Translations under genes and position numbers: made by a program | NCBI GenBank assembly: GCA_002897635.1 | Contig: BDTD01000011.1 | Location: 76,436 to 140,435, forward strand | Direction of reading: 5' to 3' | DNA length: 64,000 bases | Origin: a bacterium BMS3Abin11 | GTDB lineage: Bacteria > Pseudomonadota > Gammaproteobacteria > BMS3Bbin11 | The notes under the pieces: model-generated | Told to the model about the DNA's origin: nothing | The model's database searches: none | Seen by the model: the letters and a program-made list of their open reading frames with translations, nothing else | Shown: piece by piece, positions 22,463-46,442 of the stretch | How positions within the stretch are numbered: the first letter of the stretch is position 1 | How the letters are laid out: each line of letters starts with the position of its first letter

Positions 22463-22499
22463 CCAAAAAAAAGCCCCATAAACTCATGGGGCTTTTTCG
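22463..22499. terminator. bidirectional rho-independent terminator
   Basis: GCCCCAT-AAACTC-ATGGGGC hairpin flanked by an A-tract and a T-tract. It lies between convergent cNMP-binding and cspA genes. Confidence 0.75.
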
Positions 22500-22520
22500 T
22501 ACTTCGAGTGAACTAAGTGT

Positions 22521-22721
22521 TCAGGTCTGTACGTTTACTGCTGTTGGGCCTTTTGCTCCATCTTCAACGTCGAAGGTAACTTCCTGACCTTCTGCGAGTG
22601 TACGGAAGCCATCGCTAGCGATAGCAGAAAAATGGACGAAAACGTCCTTAGTGCCATCTGATGGAGTGATAAAGCCGAAGCCTTTGGATTCGTTAAACCA
22701 TTTAACGGTTCCTGTTGCCAT
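22521..22721 (-). CDS. cspA: cold-shock protein, CspA family
   Basis: [18 protein letters not shown]...VHFSAI with RNP motifs, 66 aa. Confidence 0.9.
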
Positions 22722-22961
22722 GATAAATACCTCAATAAATAAAAAAATATAGTGTGTTACAAGATCTTACGAGGTAATCAACAGGAGAGTTTGGATCGTA
22801 CTTCTGACAAAAACCAGGGAGAGTATGTAGCGTGCGCGAGTATACCCTGTTTTTTATAAAGAAAAAAAGACTAAATTCAGATAAAAGATGAAAAATCATT
22901 AAAGATTCCCTTCTGCTAATGCTCTTGTATCCTTAGTCCTTTGTCCTTAGTCTTCTTTCAA

Positions 22962-32999: not shown

Positions 33000-33260
33000 C
33001 TATTTTGACCCAGCCCCACTTGCGCTTGAAGCCACCTTTTTTTCCGGCTTTGCTACCTTTTTCTCCGGCTTTTTTCCTGAATTCTTGAAATCAGTCTCAT
33101 ACCACCCAGTTCCTTTCAAATGAAAAGCCGAAGCAGAAATCATCTTTTTCAATGCCTGCTTCTTACACTTCGGGCACTCAGTCAGTGGGTCATCGGAAAA
33201 TTTCTGGATAACCTCTAGCTGATGACCACATTCCTCACATTTGTATTCATAGATTGGCAT
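33000..33260 (-). CDS. FmdB family zinc-ribbon protein
   Basis: MPIYEYKCEECGH...CPKCK two CxxC pairs, followed by a Lys-rich tail. Confidence 0.75.
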   Translation of the reverse strand: MPIYEYKCEECGHQLEVIQKFSDDPLTECPKCKKQALKKMISASAFHLKGTGWYETDFKNSGKKPEKKVAKPEKKVASSASGAGSK

Positions 33261-33384: not shown

Positions 33385-33680
33385 TTTGTGCTGGCGCACG
33401 GCTAATTTGTGTCCTTTCTGGCTAGTTCTTTCTTTTTTATTCATTTTCCTGAATTGACACGAGCTTTTCGTCCTTCATGGACGAGTTCATTTCTTTTCTA
33501 CGGACAAAAGAAACCGAACCAAAGAAAAGCCGCCCCGTTGTGTTGGCCTGCGGCTGCTCTGCGCGCTTCAGTCTGAACCGGGCGCGGTGAACTCGGGCTT
33601 CGCCCTCAGACATGCACCGCACTTATCCGGCTCAGCCTTCCAGTGCTCGACAACCCAAAAGGGGACTAAAATCAGGGGAA
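33385..33680 (+). repeat. ~290 bp structured non-coding repeat, copy 1
   Basis: About 90% identical to 38590..38885 (same strand) and to the reverse complement of 44760..45065. Frame is not conserved between copies. Base-pair-preserving substitutions occur in predicted stems. Confidence 0.75.
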
Positions 33681-34004
33681 AGAGGAAAGGTTAAAGGGGA
33701 AAGGAAGATCAAGGGTAACAACCATATCCTGAAAAAAATGGTGTAGGAGCGTCGCTCGGCGCGATTGTTACGGGATGGCACAATGTGAAAATAAATCGCG
33801 CCGAGACGGCGCTCCTATCAATGTGCTTTTGGTTCTGGTGTTGATCTTTGGTCCCGTTCAGGCTTGCCGAGCAACTGTGTTCGAAATCAATCTTTTCTAG
33901 ACAGAAGCTGCAGTATTGGGCTCTGCAGAATTAAGTGTGGGCAATATGGATAATTTAATATAGAATAGTAATAGGTACTACTTAGTAATAACGAGGGCTT
34001 CACT

Positions 34005-34277
34005 ATGGCTACATCGGTTAAACTTGATGATGAGTTGAAAAATCGTATTCAGCGCCTTGCTGATACGCAACATCGCTCGGCTCACTGGGTCATGCGCGAA
34101 GCTATCCGTGATTACGTTGAGCGTGAAGAAGCAAGAGAAAGCTTTAAACAGGAGGCTTTGGCATCCTGGACTGCATATCAGGAAACTGGGCTACACCTAA
34201 CCAGCCAGCAAACACGCGATTGGCTTATTACGTGGGGGACAGATAAAGAAACGGAAATTCCCGAGTGCCACGAGTAA
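34005..34277 (+). CDS. type II antitoxin, ribbon-helix-helix (CopG/ParD-like)
   Basis: N-terminal RHH (VKLDDELKNRIQRLAD). Overlaps the downstream toxin gene by 13 nt. Confidence 0.75.
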   Translation: MATSVKLDDELKNRIQRLADTQHRSAHWVMREAIRDYVEREEARESFKQEALASWTAYQETGLHLTSQQTRDWLITWGTDKETEIPECHE

Positions 34278-34558
34278 TTTTCACTCTAGGGGCAGCGAAA
34301 GGATTAGAGCGCTGTAGATTATTTCTGGTAGAAAAAAATCCCCGGGCGAGCAAACGAGCCGGTCAAGTAATAGAGCGTGTATTCACATTATTGGAAACGA
34401 GTCCAGATATTGGCAGGCCGCTCAATAATCTGCCGGAACTACGCGAACTAACCATCACATTTGGAGATACTGGTTATGTGGCGCTCTATCGCCACGAACA
34501 AGTATCCGACACGGTGTATATCCTTGCTTTCCGCCACCAGAAAGAAGCGGGCTATTAA
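34265..34558 (+). CDS. type II toxin, ParE/RelE superfamily
   Basis: 97 aa with a ParE-like pattern (...GYVALYRHEQVSDTVYILAFRHQKEAGY). Confidence 0.75.
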   Translation: MPRVIFTLGAAKGLERCRLFLVEKNPRASKRAGQVIERVFTLLETSPDIGRPLNNLPELRELTITFGDTGYVALYRHEQVSDTVYILAFRHQKEAGY

Positions 34559-34589
34559 TTATAAGATTTTACACTGCCCTTCAGGCGGA

Positions 34590-34760
34590 TGGGCAGCATC
34601 ACGAACGATGGGTTTACCATCATGTGACGAACCGGGGCCACATTCGCAACGCAATTTTCCATGGAGCTGCATCTACAAATATATTTCTGATGGATTGGTA
34701 CGCGGAGATAAGGAAGTAAAAGCATTAGAAAAGCAACTTTACATTGTAAAATAGGCTTGA
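34590..34760 (+). mobile_element. remnant of the 3' end of an IS200/RAYT-like element
   Basis: Aligns with 63600..63716, including the terminal hairpin TACATWGTMAAATAGGYTTG. No intact ORF. Confidence 0.45.
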
Positions 34761-35071
34761 CCTTGACCCGTTATCCTTCCCCCACTTATACCCGCCGCAT
34801 CTACGTCCGCAGCTTCCGTGCAAGTATCGGGCTTTGAAGATAATGGCCTTCTTACCCACTGCGACCGCCTAATATGCGATTTCTGTTCGTCAGGTCAGTG
34901 TTTTGCCTTCGGCTTTCTTCAGATTCCACCTCACGATAGACACCCTTGCCGTTTGGCTAATCGTTCCCCTTGCCGGGTCGATAGTGGACTTTCATCACCA
35001 AGTCATCCGACCGCCACCACACGTATCGGAACAGCACCGTAAGGCGCTACGCGCCATACTTGGCGCACCAA

Positions 35072-35098
35072 TAAAAAACCCGCCGAAGCGGGTTTAGC
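35072..35098 (-). terminator. rho-independent terminator of the PEP-CTERM gene
   Basis: On the minus strand, AAACCCGCTTCGGCGGGTTT hairpin followed by TTTTTTATT. Confidence 0.7.
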
Positions 35099-35103
35099 AG
35101 GAG

Positions 35104-35820
35104 CTATGCAGATTTCCTTCTTCGGGCAAATCCCAGACCAGCAAGGCCGATACCAAAGAGTGCGAGGGTGGCGGGTTCTGGAACAGCTGGAACAGGAGCA
35201 GTTAGCAGGTAATTCACTTGATTCTGATAAAGCTGAACTTCGTCCGCGTAGCTAAGTGTGTTACCCAAAAATCCGTTGATGATCGTCGACCCACCGTTAC
35301 CAATAACTATGCCAGCATTTCCATCTTCAAAACTTGCCGCAACTACACTTCCAGTGTCTGGAAAAAAGCTACGAGAGTAAATGCCATATGTTGGATTAGT
35401 AAGGCTTAATATAGATGAACTTAAACCAGACGAAAACAATGATGTCAAAGTCAAAGTTCCCTGATTGGTATTTGCCTGAATAACATCAAATGCAGCATCA
35501 GCTTCCGTGAGCCAGTGGCCAAATATTGCGGCATCACCACCAGCAACATAACTACTCAAAGCGGCAGATCCTGTTGAGTGGCCGCTAGCATCGAATTGGG
35601 TAACAACGAGGTCCCAAGAGGTAGCTAGCTGGGTTACAAAGTCAGTGTCATTATTCACCCTTGTTACACTGAGTCCCAAACCACTTAAAGCGTCACCCCA
35701 TGTGTCAATACCTGAATACTCATAGTCATCATATAGAAGTATGGCTGCGTTAGCCGTATTCAAACCCGCTAGTAGAACTACCAGGCCCAGCAGAAACTTT
35801 AATCTTATTCTCTTAAACAT
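35104..35820 (-). CDS. PEP-CTERM sorting-domain secreted protein (intact)
   Basis: N-terminal signal peptide and a C-terminal VPEPATLALFGIGLAGLGFARRRKSA motif (PEP, TM helix, basic tail). Confidence 0.75.
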   Translation of the reverse strand: MFKRIRLKFLLGLVVLLAGLNTANAAILLYDDYEYSGIDTWGDALSGLGLSVTRVNNDTDFVTQLATSWDLVVTQFDASGHSTGSAALSSYVAGGDAAIFGHWLTEADAAFDVIQANTNQGTLTLTSLFSSGLSSSILSLTNPTYGIYSRSFFPDTGSVVAASFEDGNAGIVIGNGGSTIINGFLGNTLSYADEVQLYQNQVNYLLTAPVPAVPEPATLALFGIGLAGLGFARRRKSA

Positions 35821-35885
35821 TCTTCTTTACTCCCTAAATTATCAGAACAGAATTTGTGTATATTATGTGTATGTGTAATATTGAA

Positions 35886-35901
35886 AGCAATATCCATGCC
35901 A
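35886..35901 (-). promoter_or_regulatory. sigma-54 (-24/-12) promoter TGGCAT-N5-TTGCT
   Basis: Minus-strand read is TGGCATGGATATTGCT, with canonical GG/GC spacing, about 65 bp upstream of the PEP-CTERM start. Confidence 0.6.
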
Positions 35902-36250
35902 CCATCTAATTTCAATGACTTATAACTACTTAATTTAAGAAGTGTAAAATATTCTGACAATTTTGTTGCGTGTATTACGGTAATCACTTTGCTAAGTAGG
36001 ACGACTGCTAGATGAGTTCAGCGATTCCTGAATGTCTCTTGTGGGTCGAAGGACTAAACCGCTCTCGCGGTAACCCTCCATCAAGTTAATCGCCATTCGA
36101 TAACATAAGGGCACCTCTATTTAGTGCACTTTATGTTCATTTATCCGGAATGATTCTCATTCCTTGTTTAAATCTATTTCACAGGGATATTTTGTCGAGA
36201 TAACCCCGGTTTTTTGCTCAATTCTTATCGTTTTCCACTTGTTTCTGTTT

Positions 36251-37441
36251 TCAAGACACACTCATCCTCTCAAGATAACAGAATCGTCTCATGTTATAGA
36301 CCAGATTCATCATGCCAATCTCTGTTCTTGCACGAACTCGGCCAATCGAACGGATAGCCTTTTTTCGCAAGTTGCTTTGTGCACCAAAAACATGTTCTAC
36401 ACGGCACCGTGTTTTTGAACGGGTATGGTTTCCCTGCTTCTCCCAGTTCGTCAGCTTCTTATTCTTGCAGCCTTTTCGTTGAACCTTGCTACGATAACCT
36501 GCCTTCTTAAGACTCGCCTCTTGCTCCGTTGAACGATAAGCACTGTCTGCCCAAACATCTTTGTTGCTATTGCCTTCATCTAACAGTTCATCAAAAACAT
36601 TCGAGTCATGAACATTCGAGTCATGAACATTGGCCTCGGTAACGTCATAGTCGCGTATCAGCTTATGACCATTATCAATCGATATATGGTTCTTGTAACC
36701 ATAGCTGTGTTTACCGTTCTTTTGCGTCCAGCGGGCATCCGTGTCCTTTTGCCTGCGCTTGTGACTATCCCAGTCCTCTGGAACATCATTTTCTTTGATC
36801 TGTTTGTTTTCTTCCCGGGTGTTTCGCTGAATGGGCACCTGGATTAATGAGGCATCAATGATCTGTCCTTTACGAGCAAGGTATCCTGCCTGGTTCAGTT
36901 GTGCAGTAAAAGCCTTAAACAAATCATCAAGAAGTGTTAATTCGGACAACCGATTTCTAAAAGCCCAGAAGGTCTTCGCATCGGGCGAACGCTGATGATT
37001 GTTCAACCCCAGGAATCTTTGAAAACTACGCCGGTCTTCAACCTGAAATTCAAGTTGGTCATCACTAAGACCGTACAAACTTTGTATCACGAGACCTTTA
37101 AATATCATCACCACATCTTTACGCGGGGCACCCAATTTACTCTTACGTTTCGTTTGCTGTGCTTTATCAAGTAAAGGTCTAAAAGCTTCCCAGTCAATGG
37201 CTTTGTCAAGTTCAAGTAAGGGATTGCCTAACTTGTCCAGGCGGATGTCCTGGGCGTCAAATAAGGAGCCAAATATGTCTCGGGTCATTCGAAATCCTCT
37301 GCAAGTTGGTTGAAGTTTGTAGCTTGGTATTTTAGCATTTATGTGACTAAATAGAGATGCCCATAAAGGTTTCAACTTACCCGTGTCAGCCGGGTCTAAA
37401 TCTATGCTGAGTATTGAGGCATGTTGCCTCAGCTCATTCAT
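36251..37441 (-). CDS. IS5 family transposase (DDE)
   Basis: DDE_Tnp_1 pattern with ...GYKNHISIDNGHKLIRDYDVTEANVHDS...ADSAYRS. Contains an in-frame 15 bp tandem duplication (NVHDSNVHDS). Confidence 0.85.
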   Translation of the reverse strand: MNELRQHASILSIDLDPADTGKLKPLWASLFSHINAKIPSYKLQPTCRGFRMTRDIFGSLFDAQDIRLDKLGNPLLELDKAIDWEAFRPLLDKAQQTKRKSKLGAPRKDVVMIFKGLVIQSLYGLSDDQLEFQVEDRRSFQRFLGLNNHQRSPDAKTFWAFRNRLSELTLLDDLFKAFTAQLNQAGYLARKGQIIDASLIQVPIQRNTREENKQIKENDVPEDWDSHKRRQKDTDARWTQKNGKHSYGYKNHISIDNGHKLIRDYDVTEANVHDSNVHDSNVFDELLDEGNSNKDVWADSAYRSTEQEASLKKAGYRSKVQRKGCKNKKLTNWEKQGNHTRSKTRCRVEHVFGAQSNLRKKAIRSIGRVRARTEIGMMNLVYNMRRFCYLERMSVS

Positions 37442-37672
37442 AGGAGAAGACTCATGACACAGATAAAAGAACCCATCAGCCCGTTACGTCAACGCATGAT
37501 TGAAGACATGTCGTTACGCAAGCTGGCACCCAAGACCCAATCCGGTTATATCCGGGTGGTTAAGAACTTCACCCATTACATCGGCCGTCCGCCGGATACC
37601 GCAAGCGCAGAAGACCTACGTCATTATCAGCTACATTTGAGTATCCCGGGTCGGACCATCACAGGCCGTTGA
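37421..37672 (+). pseudogene. N-terminal fragment of a tyrosine recombinase/integrase (SAM-like N-domain)
   Basis: RMIEDMSLRKLAPKTQSGYIRVVKNFTHYIGRPPDTASAEDLRHYQLHL is typical of an integrase N-terminal domain. Only 83 aa, with no catalytic domain. Confidence 0.5.
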
Positions 37673-37696
37673 TATTTAATACTATTTCGACATTAA

Positions 37697-38467
37697 TCAG
37701 TCAACATTTTGGCTTAGAAGGTTCTTTTTGGTACCAAAATGGGCGGTGTAAGCACATGTCCGCTCCTTGATCTGGTACAGGTCCGCACTCTGGTGGACAG
37801 ATCGCCCTTTAGTCTTGATGCTCATTTGTTCTATTACGTTCTTGACAAAAGTCTGGCTACCCACTGCCACACTCTTACTCCAGATCTTCTGGCGCTGGCC
37901 ATCGTTCTTGCTCAGTGTTTCGTTAATCCATTTTTGATGGTGGACTTGCAGGCGTAATTCATCTTTCAGCCCCAGCAGCAATGCCAGGGCAACCCTGTCG
38001 ATGATGCGGTAGCGCTTTGGCGGCGACTGGATCTCGTGGTAACCACTGTGTTTCCACTCGCCGGGATGTGTGACTACACCCGCGCGCACCATATTCATGT
38101 CAACATAGATAAGACACCTTGCCAGGTATTCATCTGTATCCATGGCAGTAGCAAAATAACGATCTTCCCAGTAGGCCCCCTTTCGCTGTTTGCGCTGGTT
38201 GTATTCCTGTGCGGTACGCCCCGCAATGAGCTGCATGCTTCTGGAAATAACATTATCGCCCGTATCCATTATTACGAGCAGATGGATATGGTTCGACGTG
38301 ACAATATAGTTCAACACACAAAACCCATAGCGCTTCTTCGCCTGGAATAACCAGTAGCACCATCGTTCACGGTCACGGCTAAACTTCAGAAGAAATTCCC
38401 ATTTATGACAACGGCGTGTGATATGCCAGACGTGGCATGGTAGTGAGTGGCGATTGGCTCTTGGCAT
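37697..38467 (-). CDS. IS200-like Y1 (HuH) transposase, REP-associated tyrosine transposase-like
   Basis: HuH motif SNHIHLLV, downstream catalytic Tyr region. Family PF01797-like. Length is 256 aa. Confidence 0.75.
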   Translation of the reverse strand: MPRANRHSLPCHVWHITRRCHKWEFLLKFSRDRERWCYWLFQAKKRYGFCVLNYIVTSNHIHLLVIMDTGDNVISRSMQLIAGRTAQEYNQRKQRKGAYWEDRYFATAMDTDEYLARCLIYVDMNMVRAGVVTHPGEWKHSGYHEIQSPPKRYRIIDRVALALLLGLKDELRLQVHHQKWINETLSKNDGQRQKIWSKSVAVGSQTFVKNVIEQMSIKTKGRSVHQSADLYQIKERTCAYTAHFGTKKNLLSQNVD

Positions 38468-38589
38468 AACACTTCATCCTTAAAGTTGTTATTTTGTAAG
38501 GGGAATGGGCCTTTTAAGGCATGAAACGGGCCAATTCTAGCTCCATTATTCTATCTTATCAATGAGCTGGCTTGGTCTGACCCCAATGG

Positions 38590-38885
38590 TCTTTATTTTA
38601 GTAGTGTGCTGGCGCACGGCTGGAGGTTGTCCTTTTGGGTGTGTTTTCTTTTTTTATTTGATTTCTTGAATTGTTATGCGCTTTTCGTCCTTCATGGACG
38701 AGTTCATTTCTTTTCTACGGACAAAAGAAACGAACCAAAGAAAAGCCGCCCCATTGTGTTGGCCTGCGGCTGCTCTGCGCGCTTCAGCCTGAACCGGGCG
38801 CGGTGAACTCGGGCTTCGCCCTCAGACATGCACCGCGCTTAACCGGCCCAGACTTCCAGTACTCGACAACCCAAAAGGGGATGAA
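38590..38885 (+). repeat. ~290 bp structured non-coding repeat, copy 2
   Basis: See copy 1. Lies immediately upstream of the Y1 transposase gene. Confidence 0.75.
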
Positions 38886-39313
38886 CATCAAAATCGGTGC
38901 TAAGGCCCTTACCAATGGTAATTTGAACAGCTGCTTCCGGCCAAGATAAGTTGTCAGGTGTGTACTAACTCCGTCCAGACTGACGCTGCTAAACCGGCAA
39001 CCCGGTGTTTACTCGATCCCTGCCGGGAAACCCCAAATCAAATCCCCATAGCACGATGTTCTACACCAGCCGCATGGCTTCCCCCCGCGGTTTCCTCCCT
39101 CGAGGTTTGTCAGACGCCTGCCCGTTGAGTGCGTGATGCGCTGACAGGCCGGTGGTTGGGGGCAGGCATCTTACAACCCTTAACAACTGCGGACGTTTGA
39201 TAACGCCTTGCACACCGGCAGCATAAAGCAGAGCGACGAGGAACGGCGCTTTTTGCCGTCCGAGTGGATTTGTCTTGTTATGTGTATTTATCAAGTGCAT
39301 TGGTGTTTTGTTA

Positions 39314-39691
39314 TTACTGACAAATTGCTGGACAATTTTTACCCCCGCCATATCCAGAATAGCAAGGGCCACCATAGCCGTCATAACATGACCCACCATA
39401 GCCACTGTACGCACCACCACCATATCCCTTATTAGCACCACCACCATACCCTTCATATTTAGGTCCTCCATATCCTTTATATTCAGGACCACCGTAGCCC
39501 TTATATTTGGGGCCTCCGTATCCTTTATACCTAGGGCCACCGTATCCTTTATATGCACCACCACCGTAACCTTTATACTCGGATCCACCGTATCCATCGT
39601 AACAAGGGCCGCCGTAGCCTGCATAACCTTTGCATTCTGCAAGCGCAGAATTGAAGTAAAAAATAGACAAAACGAGTATTAGCGTTTTCAT
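39314..39691 (-). CDS. secreted Gly/Tyr-rich protein with about 11 tandem octapeptide repeats (KGYGGPxY)
   Basis: Signal peptide MKTLILVLSIFYFNSALA, then GYGG(P/G)xYK repeats flanked by Cys-containing ends. Strong GGAGG RBS. The overlapping ORF 39061..39642 is an alternative frame of the same repeats. Confidence 0.6.
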   Translation of the reverse strand: MKTLILVLSIFYFNSALAECKGYAGYGGPCYDGYGGSEYKGYGGGAYKGYGGPRYKGYGGPKYKGYGGPEYKGYGGPKYEGYGGGANKGYGGGAYSGYGGSCYDGYGGPCYSGYGGGKNCPAICQ

Positions 39692-39734
39692 TTTAACTTA
39701 CCTCCAAGGCGCTCAATAATGGGCATAGTAGAAG

Positions 39735-40369
39735 TTATGCAGACTTATTTCTTCGAGCAAATACCAAACCAACAAGGCCAAGACCAAATAGTGCAAGGGT
39801 AACGGGTTCTGGAACAACTGTTACGTATGTACGAAATGAAGCATCTGCTCCGTAATTTCTAAAAAATTGCCATTGGCCAAAATTGACCCACAGCTCCCCA
39901 CCCAAATACTGATCACTATTATCATTTTGATAAATATAAGCACTATTACCAAAATTCCCTGTTACGCTTGTATTTATAAATATATAAAAAGTTGTTCTCC
40001 AAAAGAAACTGATATATCTGATAAATCAAAACCAATCCAAGTAAGCGGTTGCTGATTAATTAATGAACCTGTTTCATAAAATAAATAATTTGATTCAAAA
40101 TTATCTAGAGGGGCCCCATTCTCAGAACTTCTAGTTAATCCAATTCCATAAGACCTCGTTTCGCTTCCGTGCCCACTCAATTCAACTTCTAGTCTTGATA
40201 AATACCCATCAATGCCAACTGTAAATGATTGTGCTCCAGGAATCACAAGACCGACAGTAGTATTACCCTCAACTTCTTGATCAAGAATTGGCATGCTGAA
40301 TGAACTCAATGGAAAAAGAAGTATAGCCAAAATTGAACCTATTGATCTATAATTTTTAGTAAATTTCAA
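39735..40369 (-). pseudogene. PEP-CTERM protein gene with an internal frameshift
   Basis: The N-terminal 131 aa ORF (signal peptide) ends at 39974. The PEP-CTERM motif VVPEPVTLALFGLGLVGLVFARRNKSA* is encoded in another frame, which stays open across the junction. Confidence 0.55.
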
Positions 40370-40429
40370 TTTTTTCTCCCCTCTAAAAAGTTTGTTTTAA
40401 ACAACACAATAAATACTGTTTGAATAGTC

Positions 40430-40445
40430 AGCATAAATCATGCCA
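40430..40445 (-). promoter_or_regulatory. sigma-54 (-24/-12) promoter TGGCAT-N5-ATGCT
   Basis: Minus-strand TGGCATGATTTATGCT, about 60 bp upstream of the frameshifted PEP-CTERM gene. Confidence 0.55.
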
Positions 40446-40643
40446 CCAAATAACTTCAATGATTTATGGACACTCATTCTATGAAGTGTAAAGTATACTG
40501 ACAGTTCAGCGGTCCTTGAAGGTCTCAGTAGGGTCGATAGCGGCTGTCTGCGACTGAAGCCTGTGAAAAGCAGTTTCGTGCTGTATGAATTGGCGCTTAC
40601 CGGCCATATGTGGGCATTTAATATCAAGTTATGACAGGAACTC

Positions 40644-41438
40644 CTAACAATTTAATAACTTCAACAAGAAGGTCTTGGCTTTACAAATGAGTGATACGTT
40701 TGAATCAACATACTCTATTTCGACGCCTAATTCTTCAATCACCTGTATTATCAACGATGAATTGATACCCTTTCCTGTTGGTAAGAAATAACTAGTTTCT
40801 TCAATATAACTTTCACCATCCTCAATTTTCACAACCTGCGCTGGCATCAAATGCGTTTCCTGATTAGCAACCATAATTCCTGCAATATAAAAATTCTTGT
40901 TTTGAGTGTGTGCAATTACTGGCGCACCACTAGCACCCTGTAATGCAGGAAATGATGTGTTAAAGCACTGTGTTTTGACTTTTTCCGGATACTCGCTTTC
41001 GATATACCGCATTATGTTACCTTTGTGGGCGAATGGCTCAATTTTAATATGCTTGCCTCCTCCACGCTTTCTTTCAATTGATATTTGACTATATTCATAA
41101 CAGTAAACATCTGCATTAAGAGCAGGCTGCTGCTTAGCAAACTGTAATGGAATAGCACCTTCAATAGGTGCAATTTTGCAAATTGCAATATCATAGTCTT
41201 TGGATGCTACTATTTCCGAGATAGCCCAAATTTCAACACGCTTACCGGAGTTAAAAAGAAATGCATATTTAGCGAATTCATCCCGCTCACCAAGTTCAAA
41301 TATATGTTTGGCTGTGAGAATGTGTAGATTATTACTGGTTCCAATAAAGCAACCTGTTCCTAAAATCTCTTGTATAGGGTCATGTTCCGAGGCAATAACA
41401 ATCGGAACTATTGCTTTTTCTGGCTGAAAAGTATCCAT
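40644..41438 (-). CDS. trypsin-like (S1/chymotrypsin fold) serine peptidase, no signal peptide
   Basis: Catalytic triad context: LTAKH (His), DIAICKI (Asp), GASGAPV (GxSGxP Ser). Confidence 0.75.
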   Translation of the reverse strand: MDTFQPEKAIVPIVIASEHDPIQEILGTGCFIGTSNNLHILTAKHIFELGERDEFAKYAFLFNSGKRVEIWAISEIVASKDYDIAICKIAPIEGAIPLQFAKQQPALNADVYCYEYSQISIERKRGGGKHIKIEPFAHKGNIMRYIESEYPEKVKTQCFNTSFPALQGASGAPVIAHTQNKNFYIAGIMVANQETHLMPAQVVKIEDGESYIEETSYFLPTGKGINSSLIIQVIEELGVEIEYVDSNVSLICKAKTFLLKLLNC

Positions 41439-41454
41439 ATTATCTATTTATCGT

Positions 41455-41580
41455 GAATGATGATTTCGCTGCGTATTCTGCTGAACGTGAACACCTATTC
41501 TGGTGATCGTGAACACCTGGTTATTCCACGTATTGGCTTAGGTTCATTTTACCCTCAAGTGTTCACGATCAGTCAACAAT
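41455..41580. promoter_or_regulatory. promoter/operator region of the peptidase gene with three CGTGAACAC / GTGTTCACG sites
   Basis: On the minus strand, TTGACT...TAAAAT with an inverted GTGTTCACGATC half-site in the spacer, and two direct GTGAACACCT repeats between promoter and start. Confidence 0.45.
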
Positions 41581-42034
41581 TGACTGTAATTTCCGCATAG
41601 ATTCTCCTTTTAGTTTGATTCGATGCAAAACCAACGGGGTCACCCATTAGCCCGCCCCGGTCAATAGGCAAAGTTTAACTCTGCCGATAACAGCATAAAT
41701 CTTCATCTTCATCCATCAACGTTACGCACATCGCATCCGTTATGTCATCGTCTTTGGCATCAGATCGAAACGATCCGCACCAGTCACCCATCTGGATCAA
41801 GGCGAAACCCAAAACTTTTCAGTTCAGCCCCTGGTACCTCGGTACCCCACACAATCTTCGGTACCAAACCGTGTCCAAAAATTAATCACAGAATCGATGG
41901 TTCAGCCTTGGCTGTCCAGACCCAGTACAGCTCACGGTTTGGGCGAAACGTAAATATTGATGGTCGGCTGAGACGTCCAATCAGACTCTATGGTTGTACC
42001 AGACCCCGTTCTGGTTCATCTCAGCCGCCCAAAC

Positions 42035-43045
42035 TTAACCCGGAAACATCCGTCTGGCATCATAGGGTACCTGATGTTTAAGCATCATCCAGGTGGCTCT
42101 TGCCAATTTTCGGGCGACGGCCCGAATGGCAATAATGCCATTTGTCTTGGCCTTTTTTCGTTCATAGAAACGCTGTGCCAATGGCTCAAATCGTACTGCA
42201 AAATGTGCCGCTTCGGAGAAGGCCCAGGAAAGATATTTATTACCCGCTTTGGCATTGCCTTCACCTTTCTTTTTCCCATTACTGGTGCGTGTACTGTCCA
42301 CACAACGGCAATACGATGCAAAGTTGCCCGCACCCGCAAAGCGATGGATATCGCCGGTTTCCAGCATGATGGTCAGGCCGAGTATTTTTCCAATACCGGT
42401 GATTGTTTGTAGTATTTTAAAGACGTCTGTCAACTTCACCGCCTGATGTGCAGACGCCTCCAGAACATCAATTTCTCTCTGGGCGGCCTGATAAACGGCC
42501 AACCCCGCGCATACGGCCTGAAGTGTGTAACCATCCACGTGTGGCGGGACAAACTCAGGTTTGCGTAGTTTCTCCGAGCTAATTCGAATTCCCGTTGATC
42601 GCCATATCTGGCTTTGCACACTAATCAGTTGCGTACTGGCTGTTCTGACCAACGACAGCCTTCGTCGTAGCATGTCTCTAATCGCTCTTTGTTCTTTGGG
42701 GTAGATGTAGCCTGTGGGCAAGATACCCAGTCGCATGAGGTGCGCAAGGTGAAAGGCGTCTTGATGATCACCGCTGTATTTCAGGCCATCGTATTGCTTG
42801 ACTGCTGCCGTATTAACCAGCTGTAGATTGTAGCCCTGTTCTTGTAATCCATCGACTAACCAGTACCAATTGAAAGTCGATTCCACTGCGATCCCGCGCA
42901 AGGTCCTACGGTAAGGACGTAGTGTTTCGAGTGTCAGTGATAAATCATTGTTTAACCGCTTTTCAAACACTCGCTTGTCCTCTTCGTCGATGATAACCAC
43001 AACATGATTATTTGAATGTAAATCAATTCCGCAGTAATGTGACAT
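42035..43045 (-). CDS. IS110 family transposase (DEDD)
   Basis: N-terminal CGIDLH..., central and C-terminal IS110-family motifs (ITGIG...LETGDIHRF...GNKYLSWAF). Confidence 0.85.
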   Translation of the reverse strand: MSHYCGIDLHSNNHVVVIIDEEDKRVFEKRLNNDLSLTLETLRPYRRTLRGIAVESTFNWYWLVDGLQEQGYNLQLVNTAAVKQYDGLKYSGDHQDAFHLAHLMRLGILPTGYIYPKEQRAIRDMLRRRLSLVRTASTQLISVQSQIWRSTGIRISSEKLRKPEFVPPHVDGYTLQAVCAGLAVYQAAQREIDVLEASAHQAVKLTDVFKILQTITGIGKILGLTIMLETGDIHRFAGAGNFASYCRCVDSTRTSNGKKKGEGNAKAGNKYLSWAFSEAAHFAVRFEPLAQRFYERKKAKTNGIIAIRAVARKLARATWMMLKHQVPYDARRMFPG

Positions 43046-43342
43046 GTCAGTCTCCTCTTCGTTTGTGAGCAGCCAGTTTAACAACTGGCTGCGAGGAGGC
43101 TGGCTAGAGGATTATCAGACTCGATTGATCATGAGGAATTAGAATCAATTCGTAATGCCACCAATAATTCCTGGGTGTCTGGTAATGATTATTTCAAAAA
43201 AGAAATTGAACGTTTACTTAATCGTAGAACGGGGCAACTTCCCACTGGTGGTGACAGACGAAGTGAAAAATTTAAGAATCGTCATTGATTCGTTTTCTAT
43301 CGAGTCTGACCCCGTTGGTTTGGACCCCGTTGGTTTGGAGTG

Positions 43343-43873
43343 TTATATTACTTCCCAAGCCTTCAACTCAACCTCAATAGCATTGATGTACTTTAAACAA
43401 TCGTTTTTCTCGACAAGAATTGCACCATGAGCTAGGTCATTTCGAGCCTCTCGACCCTTATCAAGTGTATTGTAATCCTGCCATGTGAGAGTAATTTTTG
43501 AAACTTTCATCATGTAACCCAACTTATCACTTTTCTTGGCAATAACTTCTTCATTTTGTAGTTGGGATAACACCTGACCCAGAACAGAATAGGCGAGAAT
43601 AAGTAGGAGATTATATGACTCTTCAGGACGATCCTCATACATAATCATGCCACCTGCTAAATATAGTTTTGAACTTATCCTACTCTCAAGTTCACGAACC
43701 ACTGCCCAATCTTGGCCAATAGTTCTCTTTATTTTCTTATCTCTTATCACGAATCGTAGTAGGCGTTTAATAACGGGCTTAGGAGGAGCTATGAGGACTT
43801 CTTTCTTCGGGCAAATCCCAGAGACCAGCAAGGCCAATGCCGAATAGTGCAAGGGTCGCGGGTTCGGGGACAA
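43343..43873 (-). CDS. hypothetical protein, possible HEPN-like (Rx4H) domain. Start uncertain.
   Basis: C-terminal region has an R-N-D-L-A-H (Rx4H) motif. The track ORF overlaps the upstream PEP-CTERM gene by 95 nt, so the true start is probably internal. Confidence 0.35.
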   Translation of the reverse strand: MSPNPRPLHYSALALLVSGICPKKEVLIAPPKPVIKRLLRFVIRDKKIKRTIGQDWAVVRELESRISSKLYLAGGMIMYEDRPEESYNLLLILAYSVLGQVLSQLQNEEVIAKKSDKLGYMMKVSKITLTWQDYNTLDKGREARNDLAHGAILVEKNDCLKYINAIEVELKAWEVI

Positions 43874-44474
43874 CCTCTATACTATCAATTGTGCCACTGA
43901 GTTGAAGACTGTTCCTAAAAGAACCAAACAACAATCTGTATGAATACAGGGAAGCATCAAAAGGAACAAAATCTGGAAGGCCTATCCCGTCTAGCTCATC
44001 AGAACCCAATACCGCAGCAAAAGCCGTGGTCACCCAAATATCATCTAAGCTGCCCGTGCTTGGTGAAAAACCACCAAACTTCACAACACTATAGGCCTCT
44101 TCGCGATAGAAGGGAGATGTCGGTAGTACATCACGAACTTGAATATACCCCAGACTTAGACTCGACCATGAAAAATTCCCCACCGATAAATCAAACTCAT
44201 TTACCACATAATAGCGACCATAAGCCAAATTGTCAGGAAGCACATCCACTGGATTCGTTGTGTCATAAGTATATCTGCCAAATATTCTGTCTCATAAGCT
44301 GAAGCTAGATTCTAGGCCAGACTCTATAAATGATGCTGCGCCCCTGAACTCTACTGCTATCAGATTGGCCATGCTAGGAGTAGACAGTATCAGGGCAAAT
44401 AAGCCCGCGATATTCTGAGGCCGAAGATGCCCTATAGCTAATTTTTTAATTATAATTGTATTCCAATATTTCAT
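43779..44474 (-). pseudogene. PEP-CTERM protein gene with at least two frameshifts
   Basis: Signal-peptide exon (44292..44474) is out of frame with the body (43779..44249). The C-terminal VVPEPATLALFGIGLAGL is followed by a CT insertion that replaces GFARRKKSS* with WDLPEERSPHSSS*. Confidence 0.55.
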
Positions 44475-44580
44475 TATGGAGCCTCTGATTATGGAGCCTC
44501 TGATTAATAATTCTTTGTATCTTAGACCGTGTCTTTACTATTGAGTGAGCCTGAACAGTGGCCTTCCGACTAATACAAAA

Positions 44581-44595
44581 GCAACATCCATGCCA
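44581..44595 (-). promoter_or_regulatory. sigma-54 (-24/-12) promoter TGGCAT-N5-TTGC
   Basis: Minus-strand TGGCATGGATGTTGC, about 105 bp upstream of the signal-peptide fragment. Confidence 0.55.
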
Positions 44596-44759
44596 CTATG
44601 CAATTACAATGACTTACGACACATAATGCTAAGTAGTAATACTTTGTCCGTAAAATATTCTGACACTTTTATTGAATATACTACGAAGCCGATCAATTTG
44701 CGCTGTTAGATGAGTTCAGCGATTCCTAGAAGTCTCTTGTGGGTCGACAGCAGTCAATT

Positions 44760-45065
44760 CAGGACACCGGTTTTGACTTCCTTTCCCCTTTTGTGTCGTC
44801 GAGCACTGGAAGGCTGGGCCGGATAAGCGCGGTGCCTGTCTGAGGGCGAAGCCCGAGTTCACCGTGCCCGGTCCAGACTGAAGCGCGCAGAGCAGCCGTA
44901 GGCCAACACATCGGGGCGGCTTTTCTTTGGTTCCGTTTCTTTTGTCCGTAGAAAAGAAATGAACTCGTCCATGAAGGACGAAAAACGAGCATTAATTCAA
45001 GTTGAGAACAAAAAAGTACTCAGAAAGCTAAGAGAAAACCCAGGCCGTGCGCCAGCACAAAAGAA
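44760..45065 (-). repeat. ~290 bp structured non-coding repeat, copy 3 (inverted)
   Basis: Its reverse complement aligns with copies 1 and 2. It abuts the pmbA stop. Confidence 0.75.
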
Positions 45066-45074
45066 AAAACAACC

Positions 45075-46442
45075 CTACTCCCCCGCTACTGTTATCTGCT
45101 CAAGCAAAATAGACCCGGTAATGATATTGCCGCGTTTATCCAGGTCATTACCAATTTCAACAAAATTCTGAAACATATCCAGCAGATTACCCGCCACGGT
45201 AACCTCACTCACCGGATACTGGATCTCGCCATTCTCCACCCAGAATCCGGCCGCACCACGGGAATAATCGCCGGTGACATTATTGATGCCAAAACCTATC
45301 AACTCGGTCACGAACAACCCGGTGTCCATCTGCTTCAATAGAGCCGACAGGTCTTTATCGCCGTGTTTTATCATCAGGTTATGCACACCACCGGCATTTC
45401 CTGTCGTCAGCAGACCCAGTTTACGGGCGGAATAGCTGCTGAGGACATAGTCCATCAGTATGCCATCTTTGATTATTGATCTTTGTTTTGTTGCCACCCC
45501 TTCATTGTCAAAGGCAGCTGAGCCCAGGGCCTTAGGAATATGTGGATTTTCCGATATGTTGATGTGTTCAGGAAAAATCTTTTTGCCTTTATGATCCAGT
45601 AGAAAGGACGATTTTCGATACAGGGCTCCGCCACTGATGGCTGAGATCAGATGAGACAATAAGCTGCCCGCCACCTGTGCTTCGTAGATGACCGGAGTCT
45701 TGCAGGTGGCGATTTTTCGGGAACCCAGGCGATCCAGTGCACGCTGGCCTGCGATTCTGCCGACTTCCTCTGCAGACTGCATTTCGGTGCGGTCACGGGC
45801 CTCGCTGTACCAGTAGTCACGTTCCATCTCCTCGCCTTCACTGGCAATAACCGAACAGCTGAGGGAGTGGCGACTACCGTAGCGCATGCCATTAAAGCCA
45901 TGTGTATTGGCATAAATCCCTACCCCTTCATGGCTGCTAACCGTCGCACCTTCTGAATTACTGATGGCATCACCCATCTGGCGGGCGACTTCTTCACACT
46001 GCAGAGCAAGGTCACGTGCCGTGCCCGTATCCGGGTTCCACGGATACCAGAGATCAAGCTCGGGAAATTCTGTCGCCATCCGGTCAGCATCTGCCAGCCC
46101 GCCGCAGTCATCCTCTGCGGTTAATTTTGCGATACTGCATGCCGCATCGACGGTATGCCGGATACCGTCAGCAGTCATATCAGAGGTACTGGCCGAGCCG
46201 CTTTTTTTACCGAAGAAGACTGTCAATGACAAAGATTTATCACGATTATGTTCAATGGTTTCTATTTCGCCCAGGCGCACTGTCAACGAGGAACCCTGTG
46301 ACAGACTCGCGTCGACCTCGGCACTGCTGGCACCACTGTGGCTCGCGGCAGCCAGTACCTGCTCGACCACATCCTGCAGGGGATCAGCAATGTCCTGAAT
46401 ATCTGGCTCCATTTTCTGCTGCAGGTATTTTGCGGTACTCAT
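45075..46442 (-). CDS. pmbA: metalloprotease PmbA (TldE)
   Basis: PmbA/TldD family with a C-terminal conserved region. Start overlaps the tldD stop (ATGA). Confidence 0.85.

Follow-up and report, generated by a model that had tools for sequence, protein, structure and literature searches.

The 64,000-nucleotide stretch analysed here, subsequently referred to as the window, comes from the gammaproteobacterium BMS3Abin11 (contig BDTD01000011.1, positions 76,436 to 140,435) and contains three copies of a repeat of about 290 bp. The outer two copies lie in inverted orientation on either side of an island of accessory genes, between an fmdB-like gene and pmbA. The locus raises the question of what the repeat is, and whether its outer copies are the ends of something mobile. 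The repeat belongs to a large family of structured intergenic repeats that extends over several phyla and folds on the element's own (+) strand, and the outer copies are a convergent pair of this family whose centre has grown to 11 kb. A single copy of the repeat is termed an arm. The role of the arms is less certain and is weighed in the last section.

The repeat and its fold

The first-pass annotation of the window, made from the sequence, described three similar copies with the outer ones inverted, and repeat detection, k-mer counts and a profile hidden Markov model (HMM) all confirm this. The copies lie at 33385..33680 (copy A, + strand, the left arm of the pair), 38596..38885 (copy B, + strand, an extra arm within the island) and 44760..45066 (copy C, − strand, the right arm). 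By repeat detection, A and B are in direct orientation with 92% identity over 168 nt, and C is inverted relative to both A (93% over 216 nt) and B (90% over 159 nt). Two invariant k-mers of the repeat, a 50-mer and a 27-mer, are each present three times and no more in the 64 kb, where shuffled sequences are expected to contain none. A profile HMM of the family, run over the same 64 kb, finds only the three copies, at 33463-33672 (+), 38680-38884 (+) and 44776-44987 (−), with E values of 1e-43 to 1e-45. Similarity is concentrated in a 201-nt core (33465-33665 in A, 38682-38881 in B, 44784-44984 in C), which is 96.0% identical between A and B, 95.0% between A and C and 93.5% between B and C. The 5′ leader of about 80 nt that precedes it shows only 63-74% identity between copies.

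The copies had also been judged non-coding, a view that stands. The only long open frame has no usable start codon in any copy, copy B is frameshifted, having lost 1 nt relative to A and C, and six-frame translation together with the substitution pattern between copies reveals no synonymous bias. A Pfam scan of the spurious open reading frames (ORFs) in the repeat gave no match. One frame does stay open across most of the core in A and C, as might be seen in the remnant of a duplicated protein-coding gene. This origin is scarcely credible, as the substitutions are mostly non-synonymous and the family's many indels of 1-2 nt preserve pairing, not reading frame; the six-frame translation, the substitution pattern and the Pfam scans rule it out.

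Each arm consists of about 11 helices over 200-290 nt. In order, these form a hairpin (H1), a pyrimidine/purine hairpin (H2), a mirror-repeat purine tract, a pseudoknot partner and a multi-helix 3′ domain. The leader of copy A (33385..33464) is clade-specific and contains a GTGCTGGCGCAC hairpin (33388-33399), a T-rich stretch and CTGAATTGA. H1 of copy A (CGTCC-TTCAT-GGACG, 33469..33483) is followed by H2 (TTTCTTTT / AAAAGAAA, 33485..33519), the loop of which is the 5′ side of the pseudoknot, and then by the purine tract CAAAGAAAAG with the GCCG that forms the pseudoknot 3′ partner (33520..33532). The 3′ domain (33533..33665) is closed by CCCC...GGGG and encloses nested helices and a long apical hairpin. 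The near-invariant apex of this hairpin (GAACTCGGGCTTCGCCCTCAGACA, 33589..33612) consists of an internal loop enclosing a mini-hairpin whose triloop is T-N-C; the apices of copies B and C lie at 38805-38828 and 44837-44860.

Downstream of copy A there is a purine-rich, GGA-rich tail (33666..33725), and a related tail is found 3′ of an arm in another locus (L096, 8026-8085). Motifs of the AGGGGA and AGGAAAGG type recur in the purine-rich tails behind some gammaproteobacterial arms. The tails of copy A and L096 recall GGA-rich Csr/Rsm sponge RNAs; no Rfam family matched.

The fold was established at the level of the family, for which 99 arms were collected, using a profile HMM and explicit pair counts in place of a covariance model. 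A MAFFT alignment of 54 arms analysed with RNAalifold gave 49 pairs, 25 of them changed on both sides; a co-varying hairpin and the pseudoknot were added to this structure, giving 58 pairs and 3106 cells. Over the 54 arms 96.7% of these cells pair, compared with 46-59% in controls whose 3′ partners were slid 1-3 columns along. Changes on both sides are seen in 32 of the 58 pairs, the covariation score is 0.233 (0.03-0.065 in the slid controls), and not one of 500 shuffles reached any of five fold measures. A further 41 arms, which lack the 23-mer of the apex (GAACTCGGGCTTCGCCCTCAGAC) and lay outside the derivation of the structure, pair in 91.2% of cells against 48-55% when slid. MAFFT and RNAalifold applied to all 99 arms with their flanks misaligned them and returned 5′ hairpins only, and this alignment was replaced by an HMM-guided one. 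The support for the fold is as strong as that for accepted RNA families.

The first-pass annotation had proposed an RNA or DNA secondary-structure element and a test for structure-preserving covariation. The covariation is overwhelming at family level, and in the 54 and the 41 arms alike it bears the proposal out. The examples offered from the window fare less well: the change between GGCCTGCGGC and GGCCTACGGC, taken to be compensatory, sits in a hairpin loop, and CGGTG...CACCG is invariant across the three copies. Only one pair among the window copies is truly compensatory, at columns 146/202, which read A-T in A, A.C in B and G-C in C.

Folding of single sequences is uninformative (z = −1.2 for the plus strand and −3.2 for the minus strand), and its preference for the minus strand is overturned by the family-level counts of G.U and A.C. 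Among the 54 arms G.U cells outnumber A.C cells by 187 to 25, from which it follows that the element's own strand folds; the corresponding counts for all 99 arms are 322 and 103.

In the pseudoknot the H2 loop pairs with downstream GGCGA-like bases. Three of its four pairs show changes on both sides, with examples of covariation in TGGCC/GGCCA, GTGCTC/GAGCAC and GGGTCGCC/GGCGACCC; in the window copies the pseudoknot is weak. The purine tract between H2 and the pseudoknot partner mirrors the purine strand of H2 and co-varies with it. A perfect mirror of at least 8 nt is kept in 14 of 18 sequence variants, whereas a direct repeat is kept in none of the 18. Mirror symmetry of this kind is what an antiparallel purine-motif triplex requires, and the arm may thus form such a triplex.

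Across the family the 3′ domain is closed by CCCY...RGGG, and its long hairpin ends in AACUCG-(mini-hairpin)-CUCARACA, a near-invariant internal loop. The stem of the mini-hairpin co-varies (GGGC/GCCC, GCC/GGC, GC/GC) around a U-N-C triloop. On the minus strand this apical mini-hairpin reads C-GNA-G and resembles GCGAAGC, a type that forms a very stable DNA mini-hairpin. At one locus (L093, 1983-2086) about 105 nt occupy the exact place of the mini-hairpin, with the flanking AACTCG and CTCAGACA strands retained. Readings of the minus-strand apex as hammerhead-like and of the apex loop as a kink-turn were discarded on inspection by eye, as the core nucleotides mismatch in both cases.

Distribution and convergent pairing of the arms

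The exact 23-mer from the apex occurs in 81 stretches of a species-representative genome collection, distributed over several phyla. Most are from metagenome-assembled genomes (MAGs) of the Rhodocyclaceae, which have 5-10 stretches per MAG, frequently at contig ends. The other carriers are Gammaproteobacteria, Thermodesulfobacteriota and Desulfobacterales, Eisenbacteria and Acidaminococcaceae. The Rhodocyclaceae copies are homologous across the entire core; the remaining lineages share just the long hairpin tipped by the 23-mer. Distant relatives with variant apices occur on chromids of Ralstonia and Variovorax, in Pasteurella multocida and in Ilyobacter, and a metagenome scan with a 26-mer of the window type added 14 further loci from marine sediment relatives. 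The range of the family thus extends over Beta- and Gammaproteobacteria, Thermodesulfobacteriota, Eisenbacteria, Negativicutes and Fusobacteria, and the repeat is in this respect of wider occurrence than the first-pass annotation supposed. Searches of viral, phage and E. coli collections for the repeat gave no matches, and those in a plasmid collection were solely on chromid-like replicons.

A convergent pair of family-like arms was observed in P. multocida between a DUF484 gene and dapF (L108), and another on a chromid of Variovorax paradoxus (L109). The Pasteurella arms have the module of H2, purine tract and pseudoknot in common with the family; their apex differs.

The family is apparently undescribed. 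Searches of Rfam 15 returned nothing for the window copies at the gathering score or at E<=1, nothing for six relatives at E<=0.1, and only chance-level matches for a full pair at E<=10. A literature search by sequence string found no description of the repeat, and keyword searches returned general repeat papers only. There is a real chance that some catalogue already lists the family under a local name; the chance that it marks a new cargo-capturing system is smaller. If undescribed, it would be among the more widespread structured bacterial repeats absent from RNA catalogues.

The arms have a strict arrangement. Where two full arms lie within 1.5 kb of each other they are oriented + then −, with their 3′ ends facing, in all 40 of the 40 pairs, and the gap between them is 12-219 bp (most often about 87-103 bp). 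The Variovorax and Pasteurella pairs have the same convergent geometry. In the window A and C are convergent with 11.1 kb between them, as are B and C with 5.9 kb. Solo arms also occur, and these adjoin housekeeping genes.

The centre is the part of a pair that changes. Between orthologous loci of Rhodocyclaceae species, identity is mostly 82-97% in the arms (range 68-97%) and mostly 78-93% in the coding flanks; in the centres, which vary in length, it is only 14-82%. Within the Rhodocyclaceae pairs, the left and the right arm have distinct, recurring apex types. A large centre is also found in a gammaproteobacterial MAG (L013, 1283-6161), where convergent arms adjoining gluQ are 4.9 kb apart and enclose NYN-domain, IS5-like DDE transposase and SIR2_2-domain genes, a cargo unrelated to that of the window. 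A metagenome contig related to this locus has the arm on the gluQ side and no partner within 1.9 kb. In some Rhodocyclaceae centres (L020, L064, L087) there is a dRS3-like repeat (ATTCCC-N8-GGGAAT, e.g. CGTCATTCCCGCGTAGGCGGGAATCCAGC), of a type known from Neisseria.

Clustering of ORFs from 81 loci revealed no enriched protein family near the arms. Taken singly, the arms are random in orientation with respect to genes (19 vs 19), and orientation became meaningful only once the pairs had been recognized. Both neighbours could be assessed for 23 pairs: 16 of these are flanked by co-directional, six by convergent and one by divergent genes, so that at least one gene reads into the pair in 22 of the 23, its stop codon being 0-96 nt from the arm. 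In the window pmbA reads into copy C, which begins about 10 nt past the pmbA stop codon and has the orientation of that gene. H1 and the T-rich strand of H2 appear terminator-like in a consensus scan of all three copies, the conserved 3′ domain lying beyond them; no convincing terminator was found at the arm 3′ end.

The island and its strain variation

The claim that the outer copies bracket the region between fmdB and pmbA is correct. The conserved flanks are an fmdB-like zinc-ribbon gene (33000..33260, −) beyond copy A and pmbA (45075..46442, −) beyond copy C, and the 11.1 kb between the arms (33681..44759) form a strain-variable island that is the expanded centre of the A/C pair. Same-species assemblies, found by exact-protein look-ups for PmbA and FmdB, fall into two arrangements. 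The island arrangement is present in five, counting the window (the others are L001, L002, L004 and L110). In six others (L003/L112, L111, L113, L114, L115 and L116) fmdB follows pmbA after 286 bp, and this short allele is uniform across all six except for one single-nucleotide polymorphism. Copies A and C thus delimit a strain-variable segment, because the island is missing between pmbA and fmdB in six conspecific assemblies, which is also the outcome of the presence/absence comparison that had been suggested, with the boundaries at A and C.

Identity between the flanks of the two alleles is 99.98% as far as the outer ends of C and A, where it collapses. The short allele keeps the leaders of both arms (the outer 80 nt, that of copy A included) and the 5′ half of H1, placed head to head, and it folds as a hairpin (155 nt, −56 kcal/mol), as if a deletion between the two H1 hairpins had collapsed a pair.

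The island contains an RHH/ParE toxin-antitoxin pair (34005-34558), PEP-CTERM genes (35104-35820 and 43779-44249), an IS5-type DDE transposase (36251-37441), a tyrosine integrase N-terminal fragment (MTQIKEPISPLRQRMIEDMSLRKLAPKTQ..., 37455-37646, +) that stops at the adjacent Y1/RAYT unit (about 37650-38587; gene 37697-38467, −), where RAYT denotes a transposase associated with repetitive extragenic palindromes (REP), and then a trypsin-like peptidase (40644-41438) and an IS110 transposase (42035-43084). A GY-repeat protein (39314-39691, −) would be a secreted product of 125 aa with GYGG(P/G)xYK repeats of 24-nt period, for which Pfam gave no match. The Y1 protein is identical to one of 'bacterium BMS3Abin11'.

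A group II intron fragment at 34767-34940 (−), a complete match to the Rfam model group II intron D1-D4-3 (139.5 bits), lies between the ParE gene and a PEP-CTERM gene with no adjoining reverse-transcriptase ORF, and is probably a truncated intron. It is the sole intron signal, no group II domains (D1-D6) being found in the repeat copies. Three paralogous PEP-CTERM cassettes (35089-36049, 39720-40537 and 43774-44747, −) have in common conserved 3′ ends and a 45-nt motif upstream; in the middle one, apparently frameshifted, the 131-aa ORF lacks the PEP-CTERM end. Just inside copy A, at 33743-33818, a GTAG-tagged inverted hairpin pair (GTAGGAGCGTCGCTCGGCGCGATT ... AATCGCGCCGAGACGGCGCTCCTAT) resembles a REPIN (a pair of inverted REP sequences) and is the sole copy in the window. 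Outside the repeat region, Rfam matches a cspA thermoregulator at 22466-22829 (−, 117 bits).

The proposal that the repeat is mobilized by the adjacent RAYT-like transposase has in its favour the short distance, about 130 bp, between copy B and the Y1 gene start, and the REPIN-like convergent layout of the arms. It is nonetheless very improbable. The Y1 unit is self-contained, with GGGTCGGACC / GGTCCGACCC motifs at about 37650 and 38580, and interrupts the integrase N-terminal fragment. Four homologues from this large gene family (58-86% identity; L104-L107) have no arm within 4 kb; on either side they have inverted GGGTCGGACC / GGTCCGACCC termini of their own, the same that bound the window gene. 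The adjacency to copy B is thus coincidental. The arms are at least 200 nt long and lack the GTAG tag, and the 97 arm-bearing loci (657 kb) contain no Y1 gene. Given the unit's own termini and these loci, RAYT mobilization was rejected. Homologues of the island's IS110, IS5, integrase-fragment and ParE genes are likewise absent from the 97 loci. The IS110 gene lies 1.7 kb from copy C; an IS110 bridge RNA, or a small-RNA module linked to this insertion sequence (IS), was considered and discarded as no IS110 homologue occurs at these loci.

The other proposal, that the repeat is the terminus of a large composite mobile element, is unsupported in that form. Inverted copies do stand at both ends of the unit, as they do in a composite transposon or in a transposable element of the miniature inverted-repeat type (MITE). 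However, all 40 of the close pairs have gaps of only 12-219 bp, the two cargo-bearing loci have wholly different cargo, and there is no clean empty site. No target-site duplication was found at the window pair nor, by eye, at the 40 other pairs, the arms have no ORF and no transposase, and no autonomous partner insertion sequence with the same ends was found.

Possible roles of the arms

The explanation preferred here, held tentatively at a little short of an even chance, is that the arm is an RNA-acting 3′-end, terminator or insulator module, present in convergent pairs with a fragile centre that collects foreign DNA. The arm most likely acts as RNA, we infer, at the ends of transcripts that enter from the neighbouring gene. 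Pairing would let the module work from both sides, as REP sequences and bacterial interspersed mosaic elements (BIMEs) do at a smaller scale. An inverted repeat with 200-290 nt in each arm would leave the centre prone to breakage, insertion and deletion, so that foreign DNA may gather there rather than the arms transposing the island; the window centre would have grown by insertion sequences, the toxin-antitoxin pair, PEP-CTERM genes and the third arm. A fragile, recombinogenic centre would explain its turnover, the accumulation of accessory genes and the coexistence of a collapsed hairpin allele.

Several observations sit uneasily with this explanation. The fold data fit RNA and folded single-stranded DNA alike, and the asymmetry between G.U and A.C is weaker in the partner arms (129 vs 71). 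The arms showed no conserved sigma-70 promoter, and copies A and B have no co-oriented gene upstream. If H1 and its U-tract terminated efficiently, the conserved 3′ domain would rarely be transcribed. The GCGAAGC-like mini-hairpin of the minus strand hints at a role at the level of DNA, which is for this reason kept as a live rival. The arms of the island and short alleles differ by 15-25% despite near-identical flanks, so a single recent event does not link the two alleles; they would be old, or exchanged by recombination. Finally, the multi-copy spread and the 23-mer that is identical across phyla imply a mobility for which the RNA module does not account.

This mobility is what a foldback or MITE-like transposon would supply. 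The arms would be its terminal inverted repeats and the island its cargo, the pairs with short centres would be cargo-less, and the enzyme would act in trans. Such an element would fit the 5-10 stretches of the 23-mer per MAG, often at contig ends, and their presence across phyla, as well as the invariable inverted pairing, the kilobase-scale cargo at two loci and the presence or absence of the island among strains of one species. The distinct left and right apex types of the Rhodocyclaceae also look as if the pair spreads as a unit. It is nevertheless unlikely, though a serious competitor. Target-site duplications are lacking at the window pair and at the 40 others, no transposase is common to the cargos or enriched near the arms, and the island-less allele retains the outer 80 nt of both arms. 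Pairs persist at orthologous sites in different genera, where change is limited to the centre, and solo arms adjoin housekeeping genes. Strand-specific covariation within an arm would also be unexpected of repeats bound as double strands. Of similar standing, and likewise unlikely, is an unrecognized cross-phylum system in which a factor reads the invariant loop and the pairs are the ends of, or landing pads for, accessory DNA. If this were true, a conserved factor would read a pseudoknotted, possibly triplex-forming fold of RNA or single-stranded DNA, and the cargo would be toxin-antitoxin, NYN- and SIR2-domain genes and insertion sequences.

Rather less probable is a function of the arm as folded single-stranded DNA, which would be exposed in replication or transfer and read by a structure-specific enzyme as a site of recombination, priming or nicking. 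The fold is strand-specific, and G.T pairs are tolerated in DNA too. The mirror purine tract beside a pyrimidine/purine hairpin corresponds to the requirement of an intramolecular purine-motif triplex, a structure best known for DNA. To this is added the minus-strand mini-hairpin, and a conserved loop on variable stems is also characteristic of the nick sites of HUH enzymes and of single-strand origins, which the arm resembles. Pairing might then ensure that one arm is exposed whichever the direction of the fork, a role that seems equally improbable. Neither the 81 nor the 97 loci associate the arms with a HUH, Rep, relaxase or integrase gene, the phage, plasmid and viral matches are confined to chromid-like replicons, and the family is found in chromosomal housekeeping contexts. 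A family of small RNAs, the third proposal of the first-pass annotation, is possible given the plus-strand fold. In one version of it the arms would be independent genes for trans-acting small RNAs, the gammaproteobacterial copies for instance with GGA-rich tails that could titrate a protein of the CsrA/RsmA type. The plus-strand fold with its 5′ hairpin, the GGA-rich tails behind copy A and the L096 arm and the multiple paralogous copies agree with this. It too is doubtful, since the arms have no conserved promoter and no convincing 3′ terminator, the tails are not family-wide, no Csr/Rsm or other Rfam family matches, and strict convergent pairing is not expected of small-RNA genes.

Whichever of these roles the arms have, paired arms with a fast-changing centre provide a testable model for accessory-gene hot spots at chromosomal sites. 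Cultured carriers (Ralstonia, Variovorax paradoxus, Pasteurella multocida, and Ferribacterium or Dechloromonas) make experiments feasible. For annotation, the repeat accounts for spurious short ORFs and contig breaks in many MAGs.

With respect to its fold, the arm is comparable to H-type pseudoknots with base triples and to intramolecular purine-motif triplexes. As in these, a hairpin loop pairs downstream and an A/G-rich strand is antiparallel to the purine strand of the first helix; in the arm this strand co-varies as a mirror repeat, and it is this symmetry of sequence that suggests a triplex. The known RNA triple helices (telomerase RNA, ENE/MALAT1) have two U-rich strands and one A-rich strand, a composition opposite to that of the arm.

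As repeats, the arms resemble the REP, REPIN and BIME elements, which are similarly intergenic and multi-copy, consist of two inverted structured repeats around a spacer, lie near gene 3′ ends, avoid divergent promoter regions, fold as single strands and form repeat mosaics. They differ in being multi-helix structures of 200-290 nt with a pseudoknot and an invariant loop, in contrast to a palindrome of 20-40 nt. They also have no GTAG or CGTC tag and no RAYT association when this was tested, they occur in several phyla with an identical loop, and their centre can carry kilobases of genes. MITEs with effects at the RNA level (Correia/NEMIS, ERIC, MITEPpu9) are likewise non-autonomous units bounded by inverted repeats, and can be transcribed and fold. 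MITEPpu9 carries ssr9, a structured-RNA module that hitch-hikes on a transposase supplied in trans and is restricted to P. putida (PMC12288879). Unlike these, the arms have no target duplication, no partner insertion sequence with matching ends and no IS110 association, and conservation lies in an internal loop and not at the termini. The arms show no sequence similarity to ERIC or ssr9, in keeping with the lack of E. coli matches and the restriction of ssr9 to P. putida, and an analogy with ISPpu9-ssr9 was set aside for this host range and the absent IS110 association.

Repeats with the layout of H1, H2 and purine tract are presumably also present in Pseudomonas. The long intergenic repeat families R200 (320 bp) and R26 (352 bp) of P. 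fluorescens are uncharacterized, with no structure or function reported (PMC2718517). Compared by description only, they are arm-like in size, intergenic and multi-copy, and could be related to the arm family. Among known systems the arms are thus best placed as structured intergenic repeats of the REPIN/BIME/MITE-like kind; copies A and C form one pair of them, unusual in the size of its centre.

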